Virus record (IMG/VR): IMGVR_UViG_2529292736_000008 | Length of the DNA: 10,551 nucleotides | Strand: one strand, 5' to 3' | Source: a virus | Lineage: Duplodnaviria; Heunggongvirae; Uroviricota; Caudoviricetes | Shown here: in pieces, positions 656 to 10,551 of the stretch | How positions within the stretch are numbered: position 1 is the first letter of the stretch | Layout: each line of letters starts with the position of its first letter | The notes under the pieces: model-generated | What the model saw: only the letters and a program-made list of their open reading frames with translations | Databases searched by the model: none | What the model was told of the DNA's origin: nothing | Translations under genes and position numbers: made by a program

Positions 656-1003
656 TTATATGCGGATTCCAGCGCGTTCCGTTCGTTTCGGGTGCTTCCA
701 GTTGATACCTTCAAGAAGCATGGATAACTGAGCCGGAGTAAGGTGCACCTTGCCGTCACGGGTGACTGGCCAGACGAAGCGGCCCCGCTCCAGGCGTTTG
801 GTGAAGAGGCACAGTCCGTCACTGTCAGCCCACAACACTTTTATCTGGTCACCCCGGCGTCCGCGGAAGATGAACAGGTGTCCGGAGAACGGGTCATCCT
901 TCAGGACGTTCTGAACTTTTGATGCCAGGCCGTTAAAGCCATTTCGCATATCGGTGATACCTGCAACCAGCCAGATACGCGAACCTGCAGGGAGAGATAT
1001 CAT
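656..1003 (-). CDS. tnpB: IS66-family accessory protein TnpB (115 aa)
   Basis: 115-aa ORF of characteristic IS66 Orf2 size and sequence (WLVAGITDMRNGFNGLA...), start overlapping the tnpA stop. Confidence 0.9.
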   Translation of the reverse strand: MISLPAGSRIWLVAGITDMRNGFNGLASKVQNVLKDDPFSGHLFIFRGRRGDQIKVLWADSDGLCLFTKRLERGRFVWPVTRDGKVHLTPAQLSMLLEGINWKHPKRTERAGIRI

Positions 1004-1680
1004 CAGTGGCTGCTCCCTTTTATTTCGCGGATAAGTGTCTGTAATAACGCCGGCGTCAGTTTACCTTTAAGCCTGAGAGTTCCGGCCGGCAGAACCAGCT
1101 CACAACACAGACTGTCGGACGGTGTATTTATCTGCTCTGGTTCCTGTGCGGGGGCCGGGATTTTATTATCCGGCTCCGGCGTTAACGTCACGGGAAGCAG
1201 TGCCGGCATATTTTTTCCGGAAGGCAGCAGGCCACCTTTCCGGTATTGATGGCGCCAGTTGAAGAGCTGGTTATCGTTGATTCCGTTTTCCCGGGCGATC
1301 TGCGCCACACAGGCTCCGGGCTGCAGTGACTGCTCCACTAAGGCGATTTTAAACTCATAAGGGAAGTTGGGCCGCCGGGGACGTTTTTTTACCACGGGGG
1401 CTTCGGATATAACGGTGCTTTCAGGACGTACGACTGGTACCGTGGAAAATTGTCCGTAAAGGCAGGCATCAAGTTCCTGCTCCGACATGCCTGCGGGCAA
1501 AGGCCACGAAAGGCCAGCTCTCCGAAAGCGCACGAACATACTACAAACTGTTGATTTTGGTACACCCAGGCGACGCCCGGCCACAACCCGGGGTAAATGT
1601 TCTTCAAAGTGAAGACGTAAAGCTTCAGTGATCCAGGTCCGGTGTTTCATACGATAGTGTCCATTAAAAATGATGGACAT
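1003..1680 (-). CDS. tnpA: IS66-family TnpA (Orf1), 225-aa ORF; true start may be an internal Met (e.g. 1488)
   Basis: C-terminal half carries the IS66 Orf1 HTH-like motif ([52 protein letters not shown]). N-terminal ~64 aa is an extra HTH-like extension ([19 protein letters not shown]). Confidence 0.75.
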
Positions 1681-1710
1681 TATTTTTGTAGAGCCGGAGG
1701 AAACAGACCA

Positions 1711-2505
1711 GACGGTTTAAATGAGCCGGTTACTGCCGGTATTGAGAACACCCCTGACGGCATGCAGAGTCAGGTGCTGCTGGCGGCGGACAGGATTGCG
1801 ATGGTTAATCCTGCGAATGGCAACACAAAACCGATGTTTGTTGGTCAGGGCGATCAGATATTCATGAACGACGTGTTCCTGAAACGCCTGACGGCCCCCA
1901 CCATTACCAGCGGTGGAAATCCACCGGCATTTTCCCTGACTCCGGACGGAAAGCTGACCGCTAAAAATGCGGATATCAGTGGCAGTGTGAATGCGAACGC
2001 CGGGACGCTCAACAATGTCACGGTAAATGAAAACTGTACGATTAAGGGCATGCTGGAGGCGACTCAGGTCAGAGGTGACTTCGTTAAAGCTGTATCCAAA
2101 TCATTCCCGAAACAGGCTGGTACGTGGGGTAACACGGAAACACCAAACGGGACGGTTACAGTCACCATAAGCGATGATCATAACTTTGACCGTCAAATCA
2201 TTATTCCGCCCATTATCTTTAACGGAATAGCGTATAGCGATCCGGGAAGTGGTAATAACCCGGGAGGTACAAGATACACGGGTTATGGTTTTGAAGTTCG
2301 CAAAAACGGTGTATTAATCGCATCCAGAGAAACTAAAGGGGCTATTCCCGGTAGCTACAGTGCGGTTATTGATATGCCGAGTGGCAGGGGAAGCGTCACT
2401 CTGGAGTTTAAGGTTTTCCATAAAGGCAATCAGTGGGCAGGTAATATCACCGACTGTACGGTGATTGTGACCAAAAAAGCCGCTTCCGGCATCAGTATTC
2501 GTTGA
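1711..2505 (+). pseudogene. J: Tail tip host-specificity protein J, C-terminal fragment (5' part removed by IS66-family insertion)
   Basis: Translation ...[81 protein letters not shown]... matches the recalled C-terminus of lambda gpJ. No J-like N-terminus; in-frame stop at 1618..1620 and IS sequence upstream. Start coordinate approximate. Confidence 0.8.
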
Positions 2506-2574: not shown

Positions 2575-3175
2575 ATGCGTAAACTTTATGCCGCCATTTT
2601 GTCCGCAGCCATTTGTCTGGCCGTATCCGGTGCGCCTGCATGGGCATCTGAACATCAGTCCACGCTGAGCGCGGGGTATCTTCATGCCTTGACGAACGTT
2701 CCCGGCAGCGATGATCTTAACGGGATTAACGTGAAATACCGTTATGAGTTTACGGACACACTGGGGCTGGTGACGTCATTCAGCTATGCAGGAGACAAGA
2801 ATCGCCAGCTTACCCGTTACAGCGATACCCGCTGGCATGAAGATTCAGTGCGTAACCGCTGGTTCAGCGTGATGGCGGGGCCGTCTGTGCGCGTGAATGA
2901 ATGGTTCAGCGCGTATGCGATGGCGGGTATGGCTTACAGCCGTGTTTCGACTTTCTCCGGGGATTATCTCCGCGTAACTGACAACAAGGGGAAAACGCAC
3001 GACGTGCTGACCGGAAGTGATGACGGTCGCCACAGCAACACGTCTCTGGCGTGGGGGGGCTGGCGTGCAGTTTAACCCGACCGAATCCGTGGCCATTGAT
3101 ATTGCTTATGAAGGCTCCGGCAGTGGTGACTGGCGCACTGACGGTTTCATCGTGGGTGTCGGTTATAAATTCTGA
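2575..3175 (+). CDS. lom: Lom outer-membrane protein (Ail/Lom family); reading frame broken by a +1 frameshift in a G7 run (3053..3059). As written the ORF stops at 3075 (166 aa); the remaining 38 codons continue in the next frame to TGA at 3173..3175.
   Basis: N-terminal 160 aa match recalled lambda Lom ([37 protein letters not shown]...). After the G-run the +1 frame reads [38 protein letters not shown], the Lom C-terminus. RBS GAGAGG 5 nt upstream of ATG. Confidence 0.85.
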
Positions 3176-6200: not shown

Positions 6201-6505
6201 CGAAAACCACATCGTCGTTTGATTACGGCACTAAATCCACGAATAACACCGGGGCTCATACGCATAGTCTGAGCGGCTCTACAAGCTCGGCTGGAGCACA
6301 CTCGCACGTTGATGGGCGCAGGTTTAATACAAGCACTTTTAAAGACACCTATCAGTATGGTTCTACAGCTGTCGGAAGTAACTCATACCAGGTACAAGGG
6401 GCGGTTGGTCTGGGCGTTGGTACGATGGCGAATACGAACTCTGCTGGCGCGCACACCCACTCACTGTCCGGCACTGCTGCAAGCGCAGGCGCACACGCAC
6501 ATTGA
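3239..6505 (+). CDS. stf: Side tail fibre protein Stf, 5' portion (1088 codons), truncated by IS629; stop codon TGA (6503..6505) is supplied by the IS629 terminus
   Basis: Starts [26 protein letters not shown]..., the conserved lambda Stf N-terminus (recalled). Long Ala/Ser/Thr-rich shaft, a central lower-GC module, then lambda-like C-terminal region GAPIPWPSD...GAHTHSLSG...AGAHAH. Confidence 0.85.
3590..4640 (+). repeat. Degenerate in-frame coding repeats (Ala/Ser/Thr-rich fibre shaft) inside stf
   Basis: Recurring units such as AAKTSETNA(K/A)...SAA(A/T)SAS at DNA ~3841, ~4050 and ~4310; GC-rich GCN/TCN codon runs. This composition explains the long spurious ORFs on other frames and strands. 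Confidence 0.5.
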
Positions 6506-6527
6506 ACCGCCCCGGGTTTCCTGGAGA
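6503..6527. repeat. IS629 terminal inverted repeat (stf-proximal end)
   Basis: TGAACCGCCCCGGGTTTCCTGGAGA; reverse complement of 7787..7811 is TGAACCGCCCCGGGAATCCTGGAGA. Confidence 0.85.
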
Positions 6528-6544
6528 GTGTTTTATCTGTGAAC

Positions 6545-7431
6545 TCAGGCTGCCAGATCATCGTTTCCGATGGAAGCATAATAAGCTTTTTCTGCTTCTG
6601 CCGGTGGGATATGGCCCAGCCTTTCCAGCAATCGTCGATTGTTATACCAGTCCACCCACGTGAGTGTGGCCAGCTCCACTTCTGTCCGGTTTTTCCAGCT
6701 CTTACGGTGTATTACCTCCGCTTTGTAAAGGCCATTGATGCTCTCCGCCATCGCGTTGTCATACGAGTCACCAGTACTTCCTGTTGATGCCAGTAATCCG
6801 GCTTCCTTAAGCCGCTGTGTGTAGGCCAGCGATACATACTGAGAACCTTTATCACTGTGATGGACTGTGCCGGACGGTCGACGGGCCCATAACGCCTGCT
6901 CCAGAGCATCCAGCACGAATGTCGTTTCCATAGACGATGAGACCCGCCACCCCACGATGTATCCGGCAAACACATCAATGATGAACGCCACATAGACGAC
7001 CCCCTGCCATGTGCTGACGTAAGTAAAATCAGCCACCCACAACTGGTCAGGACGTTCTGCCACAAACTGACGGTTTACGCGGTCGCCTGCGGCAACGGCT
7101 TTCCGGCTGACGGTAGTGCGGACCTTTTTACCCCGGAGAACACCGGCAAGTCCCATAACCGCCATGAGGCGCGCCACTGTACATCTGGCTACCCTGATTC
7201 CTTCCCGTAACAACTGACGCCAGACTTTACGCACACCGTATACCTGATGATTCCCATCGTATACGCGCAGTATCTCTTTCTTCAGCCAGTCATCGCGCTG
7301 CGCACGGGCACTGCGTTTATCAGGATGATGTCGCTGTTGCTGACAGTGTAATACGTTGACGGGGCAATATGTAGTTCACTGCATACCGGTCCGACCCCGT
7401 ACAGCTTACGCAGCTTATCCAGCAGTGGCAT
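6545..7431 (-). pseudogene. IS629 transposase OrfB (DDE integrase domain), frameshifted near 7345..7352; longest intact ORF is 6545..7234 (229 aa from GTG)
   Basis: ATG at 7431..7429 opens [28 protein letters not shown], which then runs into a stop. The following frame continues HCQQQRHHPDKRSARAQRDDWLKKEILRVYDGNHQVYGV-RKVWRQLL... through the DDE catalytic region (LWVADFTYV...HHSDKGSQY...YDNAMAES). The two halves are in different frames. Confidence 0.8.
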
Positions 7432-7757
7432 CACTTTTTCCAGAGGCGGTCGAACTCCGCCTTCGCAAAATAAGCGGAAGCCTGGCGAAGGATATCGTTA
7501 CTGCGGCGCAGTTCACGATTTTCACGTTCCAGCTCTTTCAGACGCTGACGTTCAGCGGTGGTGAGCCCGCCATCACCGCCTCCGGTATCCCGCTCATGCT
7601 GGCGTACCCAGACACGCAGAGTCTCCGGTGTACAGTCAATCTTTGGGGCAATGGAACAAATTGCCGCCCACTGTGAGTCATATTCGCCCTGACTTTCCAG
7701 AACCATACGAATCGCCCTCTGACGGACTTCGGGGGAAAAACGAGTATTTTTAGTCAT
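7431..7757 (-). CDS. IS629 transposase OrfA (108 aa, HTH)
   Basis: [30 protein letters not shown]..., IS3-family OrfA with C-terminal leucine-zipper-like region; stop TGA overlaps the orfB ATG (TGATG). Confidence 0.9.
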
Positions 7758-7786
7758 CCTGTTTACCTCTTTCTCAGGGAGTTTAG

Positions 7787-7811
7787 TCTCCAGGATTCCC
7801 GGGGCGGTTCA
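7787..7811. repeat. IS629 terminal inverted repeat (tfa-proximal end)
   Basis: See 6503..6527; 23/25 identity in inverted orientation. Confidence 0.85.
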
Positions 7812-7949
7812 CATACTGTCGGTATTGGTGCACACACGCACTCCGTTGCGATTGGTTCACATGGACACACCATCACCGTTAACGCTGCTGGTAACGCGGA
7901 AAACACCGTCAAAAACATTGCATTTAACTATATTGTGAGGCTTGCATAA
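7812..7949 (+). pseudogene. stf: stf 3' remnant (last 45 codons of side tail fibre gene, separated from the body by IS629)
   Basis: Reads (H)[44 protein letters not shown], matching the recalled lambda Stf C-terminus; stop TAA overlaps the tfa ATG (TAATG). Confidence 0.85.
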
Positions 7950-8533
7950 TGGCATTCAGAATGAGTGAACAAGCACGGACCATAAAAATTTATAATCTGC
8001 TGGCCGGAACTAATGAATTTATTGGTGAAGGTGACGCATATATTCCGCCTCATACAGGTCTGCCAGCAAACAGTACCGATATTGCACCACCAGATATTCC
8101 TGCTGGCTTTGTGGCTGTTTTCAACAGTGATGAGGCATCGTGGCATCTCGTTGAAGACCATCGGGGAAAAACGGTTTATGACGTAGCGTCAGGGGACGAG
8201 TTATTTATTTCTGAACTCGGTCCGTTACCGGAAAATGTTACCTGGTTATCGCCGGAAGGGGAGTTTCAGAAGTGGAACGGCACAGCCTGGGTGAAGGATA
8301 CGGAAGCAGAAAAAATGTTCCGGATCCGGGAGGCGGAAGAAACAAAAAACAACCTGATGCAGGTAGCCAGTGAGCATATTGCGCCGCTTCAGGATGCTGC
8401 AGATCTGGAAATTGCAACGGAGGAAGAAACCTCATTGCTGGAAGCCTGGAAAAAGTATCGGGTGTTGCTGAACCGTGTTGATACATCAACTGCACCTGAT
8501 ATTGAGTGGCCTACGAACCCTGTCAGGGAGTAA
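7949..8533 (+). CDS. tfa: Tail fibre assembly protein Tfa (194 aa), intact
   Basis: [54 protein letters not shown]...[13 protein letters not shown]; near-identical in length and sequence to recalled lambda Tfa; coupled to the stf stop. Confidence 0.9.
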
Positions 8534-8582
8534 TCATTGGGATTATGCCGCAGCACGTCTTAAGCAAGAACGTGCTGCGGTT
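8366..8582 (+). repeat. Direct repeat copy 1 (~217 bp): tfa 3' end (last ~55 codons) plus downstream hairpin
   Basis: Aligns by eye with 9415..9632 at roughly 85-90% identity, including exact blocks CGTGTTGATACATCAACTGCACCTGATATTGAGTGGCCT and CCTGTCAGGGAGTAATCATTGGGATTATGCCGCAG. Confidence 0.8.
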
Positions 8583-8587
8583 GGATG

Positions 8588-9256
8588 CTATTTTTTCCCT
8601 GAAGCGGAAAACATTACTACAGTACCTTGAACCTTGGTTTTAACATTCTCGAAATGCTCTGAGAGTATATGTGTTAAGCCTTCTTCGGAATCTTTTGTGT
8701 TTGAAAAGATGCCTTTCTGATTGTAAATGCGCATCAGTTTTTGACCGAAGCTATTGTGCACAACTCCATCGCCAAGAATTGTGGCTCCGTATAGAGTTCC
8801 ATCGTCAGTTAAGGCCTGCGCCGCATTGCGTATTACACAGCTTTTTGTAGATATATTTCCAGGCAGGCAGTGAAGAAGGTAAAACATGGAAATGGAATCA
8901 AATTGACCATGTAACGCCGCGGGATAAGGTTCAAAAACATCATGGCTAATTTTATGTTTAATTTTTGATTCCCCAGCCCTTGTAGATGCCGCGTTCAGGC
9001 TAGCTTCGTTCAAATCCATTAAAGATATCAGACTACTCTCAGGTACGTGAGTAAGGTAAAACCCAGTTCCAACACCAATATCCAGATGGTTGTTACCTAC
9101 ATGTTCCAGAAAGTGTGGAAGAAGGTGTTCCTTTGTAGGACATCCCCATGCAAGCCGATTTGATACTCCCAAAACCCACCAGTCATAAAGCTTTAGGGTA
9201 AGTGGTGTGTAAATTTTAGCCCCATCATCTGTGTTTTTTTTCATTGATTTCACCAT
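8588..9256 (-). CDS. Putative class I (Rossmann-fold) SAM-dependent methyltransferase, 222 aa; AT-rich cargo gene
   Basis: Motif I LDIGVGTGFY (hh[DE]hGxGxG), acidic end of beta-2 (ISLMDLN), motif II/III-like FDSISMFYLLHCLP and LTDDGTLYGATIL. No DPPY/NPPY or PC-Q DNA-methyltransferase motifs, so the substrate is unclear. GC content visibly lower than the flanking phage genes. Confidence 0.7.
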   Translation of the reverse strand: MVKSMKKNTDDGAKIYTPLTLKLYDWWVLGVSNRLAWGCPTKEHLLPHFLEHVGNNHLDIGVGTGFYLTHVPESSLISLMDLNEASLNAASTRAGESKIKHKISHDVFEPYPAALHGQFDSISMFYLLHCLPGNISTKSCVIRNAAQALTDDGTLYGATILGDGVVHNSFGQKLMRIYNQKGIFSNTKDSEEGLTHILSEHFENVKTKVQGTVVMFSASGKK

Positions 9257-9285
9257 GTTATAGTTTTATTTGTGAATTAAATCAA
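9257..9285 (-). promoter_or_regulatory. Candidate sigma70-like promoter upstream of the methyltransferase gene (-35 TTGATT, 17-bp spacer, -10 TATAAC)
   Basis: Minus-strand reading TTGATT(9285..9280)-N17-TATAAC(9262..9257) directly abutting the first ATG. If used, translation would start at the second in-frame ATG (9244..9242) on a near-leaderless mRNA. Motif match only. Confidence 0.3.
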
Positions 9286-9312
9286 TTATGGCGATGAATT
9301 ACAAGGGGTTAA

Positions 9313-9582
9313 ATGCTGCCGCAGCATAGCGATATTGAAATAGCCTGGTATGCTTCGATACAGCAGGAGCCGAATGGCTGGAAGACCGTCACCACACAGT
9401 TCTACATCCAGGAATTCAGTGAGTATATTGCGCCACTGCAGGATGCTGTAGATCTGGAAATCGCAACGGAGGAAGAAAGATCGTTGCTGGAGGCATGGAA
9501 TAAATATCGGGTATTGTTGAATCGTGTTGATACATCAACTGCACCTGATATTGAGTGGCCTGCAAATCCTGTCAGGGAGTAA
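9313..9582 (+). CDS. tfa' - chimeric small ORF (89 aa): unrelated 35-aa N-terminus fused to a duplicated Tfa C-terminal domain
   Basis: C-terminal 54 aa ([53 protein letters not shown]) parallel the Tfa C-terminus at 8372..8533. ATG preceded by AAGGGG 4 nt upstream. May be a remnant or an expressed mini-Tfa. Confidence 0.5.
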
Positions 9583-9632
9583 TCATTGGGATTATGCCGC
9601 AGACACGTCGTATGCAGGAACGTGCTGCGGTT
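9415..9632 (+). repeat. Direct repeat copy 2 (~218 bp) of tfa 3' end plus hairpin
   Basis: See 8366..8582. Confidence 0.8.
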
Positions 9633-9696
9633 AGTTTGTGAGCTTTCGATAGTGGTTGTTATTTTTGCCCTTATTTGTTCCGGAGGCCATGGTTCA

Positions 9697-9867
9697 ATGG
9701 TCCGTCTGCCCCCTGTGGTGATGTCAGCAAAATCAGCCACTGCGCGAACCACAATAGCCCGGGAAGATGCTGAAGATCACCAGGTAAAGCTGTCAGCGCA
9801 GAAACTGGAAGAACTGCTCGCATCAATGGTTAAGGATGAGGTTGATCGCAATGATGGGATTTATTGA
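9697..9867 (+). CDS. Hypothetical small protein (56 aa)
   Basis: ATG at 9697 with GGAGG (9682..9686) 10 nt upstream; ORF ends 95 nt before a strong terminator hairpin. The track's 93-aa version starts at a TTG inside the repeat hairpin and is less plausible. No recognisable domain. Confidence 0.35.
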   Translation: MVRLPPVVMSAKSATARTTIAREDAEDHQVKLSAQKLEELLASMVKDEVDRNDGIY

Positions 9868-9961
9868 CGTCAGCGAGAGCAGAAGGAAGAACTGAATAAC
9901 CTGAATGATTTACGCTCAATCAGAGCGATGGCGATTAGCGGCAATCACGCTCGATAAAATT

Positions 9962-9987
9962 AACCCCGGTGATCATCCGGGGTTTTG
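9962..9987. terminator. Bidirectional rho-independent terminator between convergent genes
   Basis: AACCCCGG (9962..9969) - TGATCAT - CCGGGGTT (9977..9984), with TTTT after it on the plus strand and A-run before it (U-run on the minus strand). Confidence 0.6.
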
Positions 9988-9993
9988 CATTCA

Positions 9994-10551
9994 TTAAAAC
10001 CGCATCAACCTTTCCACCAATTGTTCTTTACGGGCAACGATCCACCCATGTTGCTCCAGATAAAATTTAAACCGTTCCAGCGTGCATACCATCGCATCGG
10101 CGGGGACTTTTTCTGTGAACTCGACCTGACCGTGTTTATCGAAGTGGATCAGTAATGCGCATCCATTATTTGGGGCGGGGGAGTTTTGTGCTGCAGGAGG
10201 ACGTTTGTGGAGTTCTTCTTCCATTGCGTTAAATTTTTCAATGTAAGCTTCTTTTAGTCTGGCTGCTTTTTTGCCAGTAAATCCCATTACGAGGAACATG
10301 AAGCCGTCTTTTGTGATCAGGTAGCATCGTGATTCACGTTCTGCGCCGTTGCCAATTTCGACAGTCTGAACATCGGCCGAAAAGTTGGCTGATGTAAATT
10401 CGGGAGAGCAGTCGAGTGTGTCAATCTTAGCTAAAACGTGTTTATGTTGTTTATCGAAGTAGTCGGCAACAGCTTGAGAGGTGGTAACCAGGCGACCATC
10501 TTTGAAAAAGACTTTTGGTGACTCGTTAGAAAAAGTTATAGCTGTATTCAT
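9994..10551 (-). CDS. Rha-family phage regulatory protein (185 aa as read; start codon coincides with the window edge, so the N-terminus may be incomplete)
   Basis: N-terminal region ...GRLVTTSQAVADYFDKQHKHVLAKIDTL...YLITKDGFMFLVMGFTGKKAARLKEAYIEKFNAMEEEL resembles the Rha (pRha) regulatory domain (recalled). C-terminal ~70 aa of unknown function. Confidence 0.7.
   Translation of the reverse strand: MNTAITFSNESPKVFFKDGRLVTTSQAVADYFDKQHKHVLAKIDTLDCSPEFTSANFSADVQTVEIGNGAERESRCYLITKDGFMFLVMGFTGKKAARLKEAYIEKFNAMEEELHKRPPAAQNSPAPNNGCALLIHFDKHGQVEFTEKVPADAMVCTLERFKFYLEQHGWIVARKEQLVERLMRF

Follow-up and report, generated by a model that had tools for sequence, protein, structure and literature searches.

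What is a lone methyltransferase gene doing behind the tail-fibre genes of a lambdoid prophage, where it runs against the late operon and has a copy of the 3' end of a tail fibre assembly gene on either side? The question is raised by the window analysed here, a whole stretch of 10,551 nucleotides from a Caudoviricetes record (IMGVR_UViG_2529292736_000008), whose relevant features are collected in Table 1. We consider it likely that the segment is a moron placed after the tail-fibre operon, with a YbcY-type methyltransferase as its cargo and with loss and re-assortment mediated by the repeats.

Table 1. Features of the tfa-methyltransferase segment and its downstream flank (window coordinates)
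Feature	Position	Strand	Remarks
tfa, intact 194-aa tail fibre assembly protein	7949..8533	+	Caudo_TAP, phrog_105, lambda orf-194 likeness
Direct repeat copy 1	8366..8582	+	last ~165 nt of tfa and downstream hairpin; 89-90% identical to 9415-9632
11-bp GC-rich hairpin	8548..8580	.	between convergent stops of tfa (8531-8533) and methyltransferase (8588-8590)
ybcY-type class I SAM-dependent methyltransferase	8588..9256	-	222-aa ORF; Pfam Methyltransf_12/23/25/11
AT-rich divergent spacer, 26.8% GC	9257..9312	-	predicted methyltransferase promoter
tfa', 89-aa chimeric ORF	9313..9582	+	phrog_3893-type start and Tfa C-terminus
Direct repeat copy 2	9415..9632	+	tfa 3' end and hairpin 9597-9630
DUF4376-type tail-fibre-associated gene remnant	9679..9957	+	internal stop, no N-terminus; PGAP on the identical L001 sequence

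Judged by its sequence, the tfa-methyltransferase-tfa' segment is an intact copy of tfaD'-ybcY'-tfaX' in the DLP12 prophage of Escherichia coli K-12. Window positions 8095-9559 are collinear with DLP12 at 96.9% identity, with two gap positions, both inside ybcY. In K-12, ybcY is annotated as frameshifted and the flanking tfa fragments as pseudogenes, and these are followed by appY and ompT. The core (8583-9405) was found in 3798 of 5426 complete E. coli genomes (70%). The IS-stf junction of the window had no match among complete E. coli genomes or GTDB species representatives. The locus is therefore of little weight as a discovery: it is already annotated in K-12, with ybcY between tfaD and tfaX, and thousands of genomes annotate the ybcY-type gene as a class I SAM-dependent methyltransferase. 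Literature searches with the protein accession or the PHROG found no paper, and a general search on morons, tfa, and methyltransferases returned nothing specific to the locus. The name ybcY appeared only in lists, namely a promoter SELEX table, a description of the ompT context, and a deletion with no phenotype. The locus is of modest interest on two other counts. Prophages of most E. coli carry an intact, apparently constrained enzyme which has never been characterised because the copy in the laboratory strain is broken, and the locus offers a clean, quantifiable case of a recombination scar (the duplicated tfa ends) that later drives the loss and re-assortment of a moron.

The left border of the segment is well defined. 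The last gene of the late tail-fibre operon is tfa, which matches Pfam Caudo_TAP (E 1.3e-44) and phrog_105 (E 1e-100) and is 92-95% identical at the DNA level to lambda orf-194. The Rfam "sRNA" family IS009 is actually the 3' coding sequence of tfa, a side effect of the scattering of tfa ends. Within the 49 nt after the tfa stop, CCGCAGCACGT (8548-8558) pairs with ACGTGCTGCGG (8570-8580) in a hairpin with predicted RNA folding energies of -28.5 kcal/mol on the plus strand and -25.4 kcal/mol on the minus strand (z -4.5 for both). The hairpin of the second repeat copy has one bulged A and folds at -24.1 kcal/mol (z -2.2), and in the lambda version both arms have changed, from C-G to A-U, so that the stem is kept. 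The hairpin at 8548-8580 always adjoins the 3' end of the methyltransferase gene, in 80 of 80 IMG/VR loci, even where tfa itself has been replaced. It follows the methyltransferase stop by 6 nt; a U-tract is missing on the minus strand and lies at a distance on the plus strand. A terminator consensus scan did not call it, and it is a candidate terminator only.

The repeat search paired 8357-8553 with 9406-9602 (197 nt, 89%) and 8554-8582 with 9604-9632 (29 nt, 90%), the two blocks being split by a 1-nt indel within the hairpin. Gapless identity was 89.4% over 8366-8553 and 90.2% over 8371-8553 and dropped to 38% just upstream of the repeat and 24% just downstream. With so sharp a drop outside both ends, the limits given for the repeats in the original prediction were correct; the copies align as proposed there, but at about 90% and not with exact identity. 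The stretch between them, described as AT-rich and ~830 bp long, measures 832 bp at 41% GC against 47-53% in the flanks (41.4% for 8583-9405, compared with 47.9% for tfa, 52.7% for J-lom-stf, and 47.9% for the downstream flank), a foreign base composition like that of a moron. A transposon with target-site duplication was rejected, as the repeats are 217 bp long, are 90% identical, and hold part of a gene, with no transposase between them. An invertible tail-fibre segment was likewise rejected: the repeats are direct, the repeat search found no inverted repeats in 7000-10551, and the window contains no invertase ORF.

The cargo itself was foreseen as a 222-aa minus-strand SAM-dependent methyltransferase with a Rossmann fold and no DNA-methyltransferase signature motifs, and both parts of this description were borne out. 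The ORF is intact and has Pfam methyltransferase matches, and its predicted structure (pLDDT 88) is a compact single domain with an N-terminal helical cap and the Rossmann-like seven-stranded fold of class I, including motif I GxGxG and acidic residues after strands 2 and 3. All of the SAM-binding motifs are intact. The real product is probably 218 aa long, starting at M5 (9244), since the homologues all begin there and the K-12-type promoter abuts the first ATG. Direct reading of the 222-aa sequence found neither [DNS]PP[YFW] nor PCQ/ENV motifs, no Pfam DNA-methylase family matched at E 0.01 or better, and no target-recognition domain is present in the single-domain model; on motifs, Pfam, and fold we rejected a DNA methyltransferase or restriction-modification enzyme. 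Naming the family, as had been proposed, did not succeed: PDB sequence and profile searches, NCBIfam, and cluster names gave no specific family or name, and the bit scores against NCBIfam PmtA, RquA, and CpaM (15.7, 16.9, and 18.0) lay below the cut-offs of 390, 175, and 180. The structural neighbours of the model are small-molecule methyltransferases (JHAMT, UbiG, BelI/CysG, and PE N-methyltransferase). In Enterobacter, Salmonella, and Yersinia, relatives with 56-68% identity occur as single genes outside phage surroundings, and no conserved partner genes were found beside the chromosomal homologues.

The gene also appears to carry its own promoter. The spacer holds TTGATT-17-TATAAC at 9285-9257 on the minus strand, for which 0.01 matches are expected by chance, and an alternative, TTAACC-16-CATAAT, at 9312-9285. 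The ybcY<>tfaX spacer of K-12 has the same hexamers and is flagged for H-NS, and it was recovered by genomic SELEX with RpoD holoenzyme (PMC3946193). The predicted sigma-70 hexamers and the K-12 SELEX result (PMC3946193) together point to an independent promoter of the kind seen in morons. H-NS binding suggests that the methyltransferase may be largely silent in the lysogen.

On the right-hand side of the spacer, tfa' is a chimera. Its codons 1-35 resemble a small gene of the phrog_3893 or HK225 gp29 type (phrog_3893 at E 3e-7 over residues 3-37; 39% identity to HK225_029 over 36 aa), and codons 36-89 are the Tfa C-terminus (81% over 63 aa), so that only positions 75-130 of the 131-position Caudo_TAP profile are covered. 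A Shine-Dalgarno-like AAGGGG lies 4 nt upstream of the ATG, and the ORF forms its own PHROG, phrog_2341. The predicted ORF with a repeat-derived C-terminus and a ribosome-binding sequence thus exists, but the idea that it is a new gene does not hold. In ~20 of 78 near-identical copies tfa' is frameshifted, truncated or deleted, stopped, or has its C-terminus replaced; its pN/pS is 0.72, with indels in 3 of 13 alleles, and PGAP labels it a pseudogene. What lies upstream of it is the convergent methyltransferase and no cognate fibre gene, an arrangement not expected of a maintained gene. Breakage in about a quarter of the copies argues for a scar rather than a new gene, and tfa' is probably a decaying remnant. 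Further downstream, the DUF4376-type remnant matches phrog_1141 and phrog_7703, and a 72%-identical counterpart of it lies upstream of the methyltransferase in other phages.

Presence and absence of the cassette show how the repeats act. With the same flanks, 763 genomes carry the cassette and 20 lack it, the latter having tfa, one repeat, and the same downstream flank. This polymorphism, for which the original prediction had asked related prophages to be compared, is bounded exactly by the repeats, and it falls at a module boundary as in morons. Locus L093 has the same J-lom-stf-tfa...rha-ash-ompW context. In 7 of the 20 empty sites the single repeat is a hybrid that resembles copy 1 in its left part and copy 2 in its right part, with the switch point at 8474-8512 in six and at 8519-8552 in one. 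Cassette loss through repeat recombination is real. It is conceivable that some of the empty sites descend from a parent that was never occupied; the hybrid pattern fits deletion better. Re-assortment is seen across the 80 IMG/VR loci. The part that stays constant there (98-100%) runs from the hairpin through the methyltransferase and spacer into copy 2, of which it includes no fewer than 111 nt. On the left, the flank changes over to other modules at repeat position 32, 57, 80, or 192, and on the right it ends at position 132, 155, or 227. In phage 2G7b the cassette sits behind unrelated fibre genes, and phage Ayreon retains the scar only, the methyltransferase gene having been deleted.

The position was described in the original prediction as one where lambda-like prophages commonly carry accessory genes, and other cargo is indeed found there: ea47 directly after tfa in lambda, dinI in HK225, a hydrolase and ompT in 2G7b, and dinI, sodC, and sopA in Citrobacter prophage remnants. 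The claim that the cassette was acquired by recombination between tfa-like sequences stands in part. The segment does look like a moron or cassette, but tfa recombination explains its later loss and re-assortment better than its original acquisition. The sequences that meet at the right-hand junction, at about 9405-9414, were joined without homology. We infer that the right-hand repeat is the scar of a single such join between two related phage genomes. A small gene that lay divergent from the methyltransferase would have supplied its first 35 codons, and another tfa its last 55 codons together with the hairpin, giving the chimeric tfa' as the product. The ~217-bp repeats now serve as portable homology. 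Recombination between them deletes the cassette, as the hybrid single-repeat empty sites show, and recombination within them re-attaches it to other tail-fibre modules, as the varied left junctions show. The methyltransferase itself would be read from its sigma-70 promoter in the AT-rich spacer, where it is probably silenced by H-NS, and would converge with tfa and make use of the hairpin that follows that gene. The enzyme presumably derives from a family of stand-alone chromosomal genes in Enterobacterales. It would bind SAM and, to the benefit of the lysogen, methylate some small molecule, most likely a carboxylate-like or lipid-like metabolite that undergoes O- or N-methylation.

It is also important to weigh other explanations of the cassette. 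The whole unit, methyltransferase included, might be non-functional debris of old tail-fibre swaps that hitch-hikes in widespread defective prophages. The frameshifted ybcY of K-12, the pseudogenes tfa' and DUF4376 remnant next to the gene, the scar in Ayreon, the H-NS flag on the spacer (PMC3946193), and the wrecking of the window's own prophage by IS elements all lend themselves to this explanation. We nevertheless regard it as unlikely, as every one of 78 loci has a full-length methyltransferase gene free of indels and nonsense changes, although the 80 IMG/VR loci were picked by similarity to it and such uniform intactness thus overstates selection. Its pN/pS is 0.37, against 0.72 and indels for the adjacent tfa' at the same loci, its SAM-binding motifs are preserved, and phage genome records, including those of 2G7b, ev243, and the PhiR phages, carry it. 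Counter to the uniform intactness, K-12 itself has a broken ybcY. Alternatively, the methyltransferase may be a working lysogenic-conversion enzyme, overlooked because the K-12 copy is frameshifted, which methylates a host metabolite or envelope lipid; taken as a whole, this more specific proposal is rather improbable. If it were true, the carrier prophages would be those of about 70% of E. coli, candidate targets of YbcY would include a carboxylate or amine head-group, and the enzyme would alter cell physiology, surface properties, or phage-host interactions, with the flanking tfa repeats as a built-in handle that moves the gene among tail-fibre modules.

In other phages the cargo hotspot behind the tail genes can house defence genes, the literature text on this concerning P2-like phages, and methyltransferases are common in defence and anti-defence systems. 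A factor of this kind might act by modifying nucleic acid, or by using up or changing SAM or a signalling molecule, and so protect the phage or lysogen. The suggestion, made in the original prediction, found no evidence here, and we hold it to be very unlikely. PADLOC gave no defence-model match at E < 0.001 for the methyltransferase (its sole match was mad2, at E 0.009 and 12.9 bits) and no matches for tfa' or the downstream ORF. The protein lacks DNA-methylase motifs, Pfam DNA or RNA methylase domains, and a target-recognition domain beside its single domain; its structural neighbours are metabolite methyltransferases; and its closest relatives are lone chromosomal genes without partners. 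It is conceivable, finally, that the cassette is a tail-fibre accessory unit in which tfa' is a mini-chaperone for an alternative fibre and the methyltransferase modifies the fibre or the chaperone. The cassette does always adjoin tail-fibre genes, and tfa' retains the conserved C-terminal segment of Tfa, its AAGGGG, and a PHROG of its own. Yet positions 1-74 of the Caudo_TAP profile have no counterpart in tfa', about one copy in four is disrupted, and no cognate fibre gene precedes the ORF. The methyltransferase gene runs antisense to the late operon, with a predicted promoter of its own and non-phage chromosomal homologues, and unrelated cargo (dinI, sodC, and ea47) occupies the same position elsewhere. 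We therefore find this extremely unlikely and retain the moron reading.

Taken together, these features can be set against known systems. The YbcY-type enzyme shares its fold, motif I GxGxG, acidic residues, and cap with insect JHAMT, UbiG, BelI/CysG, DhpI, NodS, and the bacterial PE N-methyltransferase (8ys9), but sequence identity to these small-molecule methyltransferases is only 13-21%, and, as no match stands out, a substrate cannot be transferred from them. Compared with DLP12, both tfa-end repeats, the hairpin, the spacer promoter, and the methyltransferase are present in the same order and orientation. In the window, however, tfa is full length and follows stf, lom, and J, and ybcY is intact, whereas the tfaD of DLP12 has lost its N-terminal part and is fused to terminase debris, its ybcY has a 2-nt deletion, and its tfaX has an internal stop. 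The 3' flanks also differ, with the DUF4376 remnant, rha, and ash at the ompW attachment site in the window and appY and ompT in K-12.

The invertible segments of Mu (G), P1 (C), and e14 (P), served by Gin, Cin, and Pin, likewise carry tail-fibre-assembly sequence twice towards the end of the tail-fibre operon. In the window, by contrast, the copies are direct, and there is neither an invertase nor an alternative fibre C-terminus. The segment also resembles the morons of lambdoid phages, such as lambda bor and lom, those of the HK97 family, HK225 dinI, and Gifsy-type sodC. As in these, a single gene of foreign composition, with its own promoter (predicted here), lies behind the tail genes where two modules meet, and some phages carry it while otherwise similar ones do not. 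Unlike lambdoid morons, its candidate terminator is only a hairpin in common with tfa, and unlike morons generally, it is bracketed by 217-bp direct repeats of the neighbouring structural gene.

The cassette is bounded by direct repeats of the tfa 3' end. A repeat search aligned 8357-8553 with 9406-9602 at 89% identity and 8554-8582 with 9604-9632 at 90%, the two blocks being parted by a single 1-nt indel. Identity stayed at 89-90% from 8366 on and dropped to 38% and 24% beyond the repeat edges, which bears out the limits of 8366-8582 and 9415-9632 given in the original prediction. The repeat covers the final ~165 nt of tfa plus 49 nt beyond it, in which 8548-8558 and 8570-8580 pair as an 11-bp GC-rich stem. 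When folded as plus-strand RNA, the hairpin of copy 1 reached -28.5 kcal/mol (z -4.5) and that of copy 2, which has a bulged A, -24.1 kcal/mol (z -2.2); in the lambda version a C-G pair has become A-U, both arms having changed so that the stem is preserved. The predicted AT richness between the repeats was also seen, as the unique stretch 8583-9405 has 41.4% GC versus 47.9 to 52.7% in its surroundings (spacer 9257-9312, 26.8%). The Rfam family IS009 (RF02111), classed there as an sRNA gene, matches at full length within the tfa coding sequence (8292-8490, plus strand; 223.8 bits, gathering score 117) and again over the short ORF tfa' (9336-9539, plus strand; 112.5 bits, slightly under threshold). 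This "sRNA family" appears to be a scattered tfa 3' coding segment, which in K-12 is the tfaD pseudogene region. The tfa-end hairpin (8517-8579, plus strand) also gave a weak, subthreshold Rfam match to CssrB, a chromosome-encoded Shigella sRNA (32.6 bits versus 76; E = 2e-4).

Presence of the cassette is polymorphic between the same flanks. The whole of 7900-9950 was found in 763 genomes carrying the flanks of the window, while a query joining tfa to the downstream flank through one repeat, its length chosen to keep occupied sites below 80% coverage, matched without interruption at 94 to 99% identity in 20 genomes. One of these empty sites, in NMBU-W13E19, has the order J-lom-stf-tfa...DUF4376'-rha-ash-ompW' of the occupied arrangement without the methyltransferase. 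The proposal of a moron, present or absent as a repeat-bounded unit, was essentially right. In seven empty sites the remaining repeat is a hybrid, with copy 1 variants to its left and copy 2 variants to its right; the changeover falls within 8474-8512 in six and within 8519-8552 in one, and small patches differ. Judged from these variants, this is the pattern expected if the cassette had been deleted by homologous recombination between the repeats, more than once. A never-occupied ancestor would be copy 2-like throughout.

The locus has been known before, under the names tfaD, ybcY, and tfaX, and is extremely common: the unique core (8583-9405) occurs at ≥95% identity in 3,798 of 5,426 complete E. 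coli genomes, K-12 among them, in which it is part of the DLP12 prophage. There, nohD and a terminase fragment precede a tail fiber assembly pseudogene without its N terminus, a frameshifted methyltransferase of class I, and another tail fiber assembly pseudogene, this one with an internal stop; appY, ompT, and envY follow. We take the pseudogene-methyltransferase-pseudogene trio to be tfaD, ybcY, and tfaX. Window positions 8095-9559 are 96.9% identical to the K-12 stretch, with two gap positions, both inside the methyltransferase segment (8583-9256), and ybcY is annotated as frameshifted in the K-12 record. Given this collinearity, the window carries in intact form what has long been annotated in K-12 as a pseudogene cluster. 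Deletion of ybcY was without effect in a Hha toxicity assay (PMC2408971), and the distance from ompT to ybcY is 272 bp in several uropathogenic strains and E2348/69 (10.1101/594564).

Genomic SELEX with RpoD holoenzyme placed divergent constitutive promoters, with an H-NS flag, in the ybcY<>tfaX spacer, that of ybcY being TTGATT-17-TATAAC (PMC3946193). This string occurs once in the window, at 9285-9257 on the minus strand, and its -10 hexamer abuts the first methyltransferase ATG. As every homologue starts at M5, translation probably begins at 9244, giving a product of 218 aa.

The short ORF tfa' had been described as a new ORF with its own ribosome-binding site. It does carry a Shine-Dalgarno-like AAGGGG, but it is better seen as a decaying chimera than as a new gene. 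Over its C-terminal 63 residues it shares 81% identity with the Tfa C terminus, and of the Caudo_TAP profile these match only positions 75-130. Residues 1-35 match phrog_3893 (E = 3e-7) and, at 39% over 36 aa, the start of HK225 gp29, a 99-aa ORF just past the HK225 tail genes and divergent from a minus-strand dinI moron. By these matches tfa' is a chimera, whose start codon and AAGGGG derive from a different small gene. The most economical history would start from two related phages, each with a tfa and the hairpin; downstream of these, one would have had the methyltransferase and the small gene, and the other different DNA. One nonhomologous join, leading from codon 35 of the small gene into the second tfa at about codon 139, would have created the direct repeat. 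Among ~78 near-identical loci, tfa' is intact (88 to 89 aa) in ~55 and frameshifted, stopped, internally deleted, or replaced at its C terminus in ~20; PGAP annotates it as a pseudogene. Its pN/pS was 0.72, with indels in 3/13 alleles, compared with 0.37 for the methyltransferase and 0.23 for full tfa, both free of indels, although these are small numbers from a sample biased to intact methyltransferases.

Family searches gave the enzyme no specific name: Pfam returned only generic methyltransferase families (Methyltransf_12, 23, 25, and 11), PHROGs assigned phrog_2132, of unknown function, and NCBIfam yielded only far-subthreshold matches to CpaM, RquA, and PmtA. A suggested defense or antidefense role was unsupported, with no significant match in a PADLOC search. 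Invariant across 26 homologues (down to 56% identity) are motif I (DIGVGTG), D81, H105-D106, FDSISMFYLLHCLPG, and an N-terminal YDWWVL...N..AW.C.T helix. AlphaFold2 modeled the enzyme with confidence (pLDDT 88, pTM 0.86). The best PDB relatives by sequence were juvenile hormone acid methyltransferase (JHAMT; profile E = 7e-6) and UbiG, and the top Foldseek matches were JHAMT, bacterial phosphatidylethanolamine N-methyltransferase, CysG, NodS, and RebM (TM ~0.55 to 0.65); these structural neighbors are all metabolite or lipid methyltransferases, and no single one stands out. Relatives of 56 to 68% identity are lone genes in unrelated, nonphage chromosomal contexts (Enterobacter, Salmonella, and Yersinia), and those of 68 to 90% (Citrobacter and Salmonella) sit among the prophage-type cargo dinI, sodC, sopA, and perC. 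From these contexts, the phage gene looks like a captured host-type metabolite methyltransferase. Our best guess is that, in the lysogen, the enzyme O- or N-methylates a small molecule resembling a carboxylate or a lipid. What remains of interest is that most E. coli harbor this enzyme, uncharacterized and apparently under constraint.

The window corresponds to the right end of a lambdoid prophage that is degraded, and defective because its tail tip gene J is truncated; a near-identical undamaged prophage lies at the ompW/trp locus of many E. coli strains, e.g., NZ_CP030768.

Features of the prophage right end and its cassette
Feature	Position	Strand	Remark
IS66-family-like ORFs (115 aa and 225 aa)	656-1680	-	directly upstream of truncated J
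J C terminus	1642-2505	+	only C-terminal 287 codons kept
lom	2575-3175	+	frameshifted
stf, long side tail fiber gene	from 3197	+	broken by IS3/IS629-type element
IS3-family (IS629-like) element, ~1.3 kb	6503-7811	-	orfA, orfB, ALIL frameshift pseudoknot (Rfam, 116 bits)
tfa	7949-8533	+	
Methyltransferase	8588-9256	-	
tfa', short ORF	9313-9582	+	
DUF4376-type pseudogene remnant	9679-9957	+	downstream of tfa'
rha	9994-10551	-	

The lom gene is split into overlapping ORFs (2575-3075 and 3017-3175) that span 601 nt versus 600 nt in the intact gene of comparison sequence L001, which looks like a frameshift from a 1-nt insertion. The IS629-like element sits in the 3' part of stf between CAT target duplications (6500-6502 and 7812-7814), and the stf frame picks up again at 7812 and stops at 7948. 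The exact IS-stf junction had no match in the 5,426 complete E. coli genomes or the GTDB species representatives. Directly past the rha stop codon, between rha and the methyltransferase promoter region, stands a clean intrinsic-terminator-like hairpin (9962-9984, minus strand; 8 bp, 6 of them GC, then AATTTTAT). A small ORF at 8475-8630 (plus strand), which overlaps the end of tfa and, beyond the hairpin, the 3' end of the methyltransferase, is labeled "hypothetical protein" in RefSeq and "nucleocapsid protein" in one K-12 record; it is probably a spurious call.

In 80 IMG/VR prophage loci with a 99 to 100% identical methyltransferase, the hairpin, the methyltransferase, the spacer, and 111 nt or more of repeat copy 2 formed a constant unit (80/80). 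The left flank was either a full lambda-type tfa or other sequence joined at repeat position 32, 57, 80, or 192, and the right repeat stopped at 132, 155, or 227. A 72%-identical counterpart of the DUF4376 remnant lies in another phage group (L072, 6839-7056), ~2.1 kb away on the other side of the methyltransferase; the post-tfa zone thus gathers remains of several tail fiber modules. Phage Ayreon (L094, 3286-3599) retains a scar of the tfa 3' end, the hairpin, ~45 nt of the methyltransferase 3' end, and a degraded tfa' start, nearly the entire methyltransferase having been deleted. The locus neatly illustrates how a recombination scar goes on to mediate the loss and reassortment of a moron. 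Unrelated fiber genes precede the unit in phage 2G7b, which has retained 170 nt of tfa 3' end, orphaned but still with the hairpin; the arrangement looks like a living relative of the DLP12 right end. In the genome record of this phage (L002, 4176-8007), an alpha/beta hydrolase, ompT, and an integrase come after ybcY and tfa', an order that echoes the ybcY, tfaX, appY, ompT of DLP12 and suggests that the segment is an intact relative of that right end.
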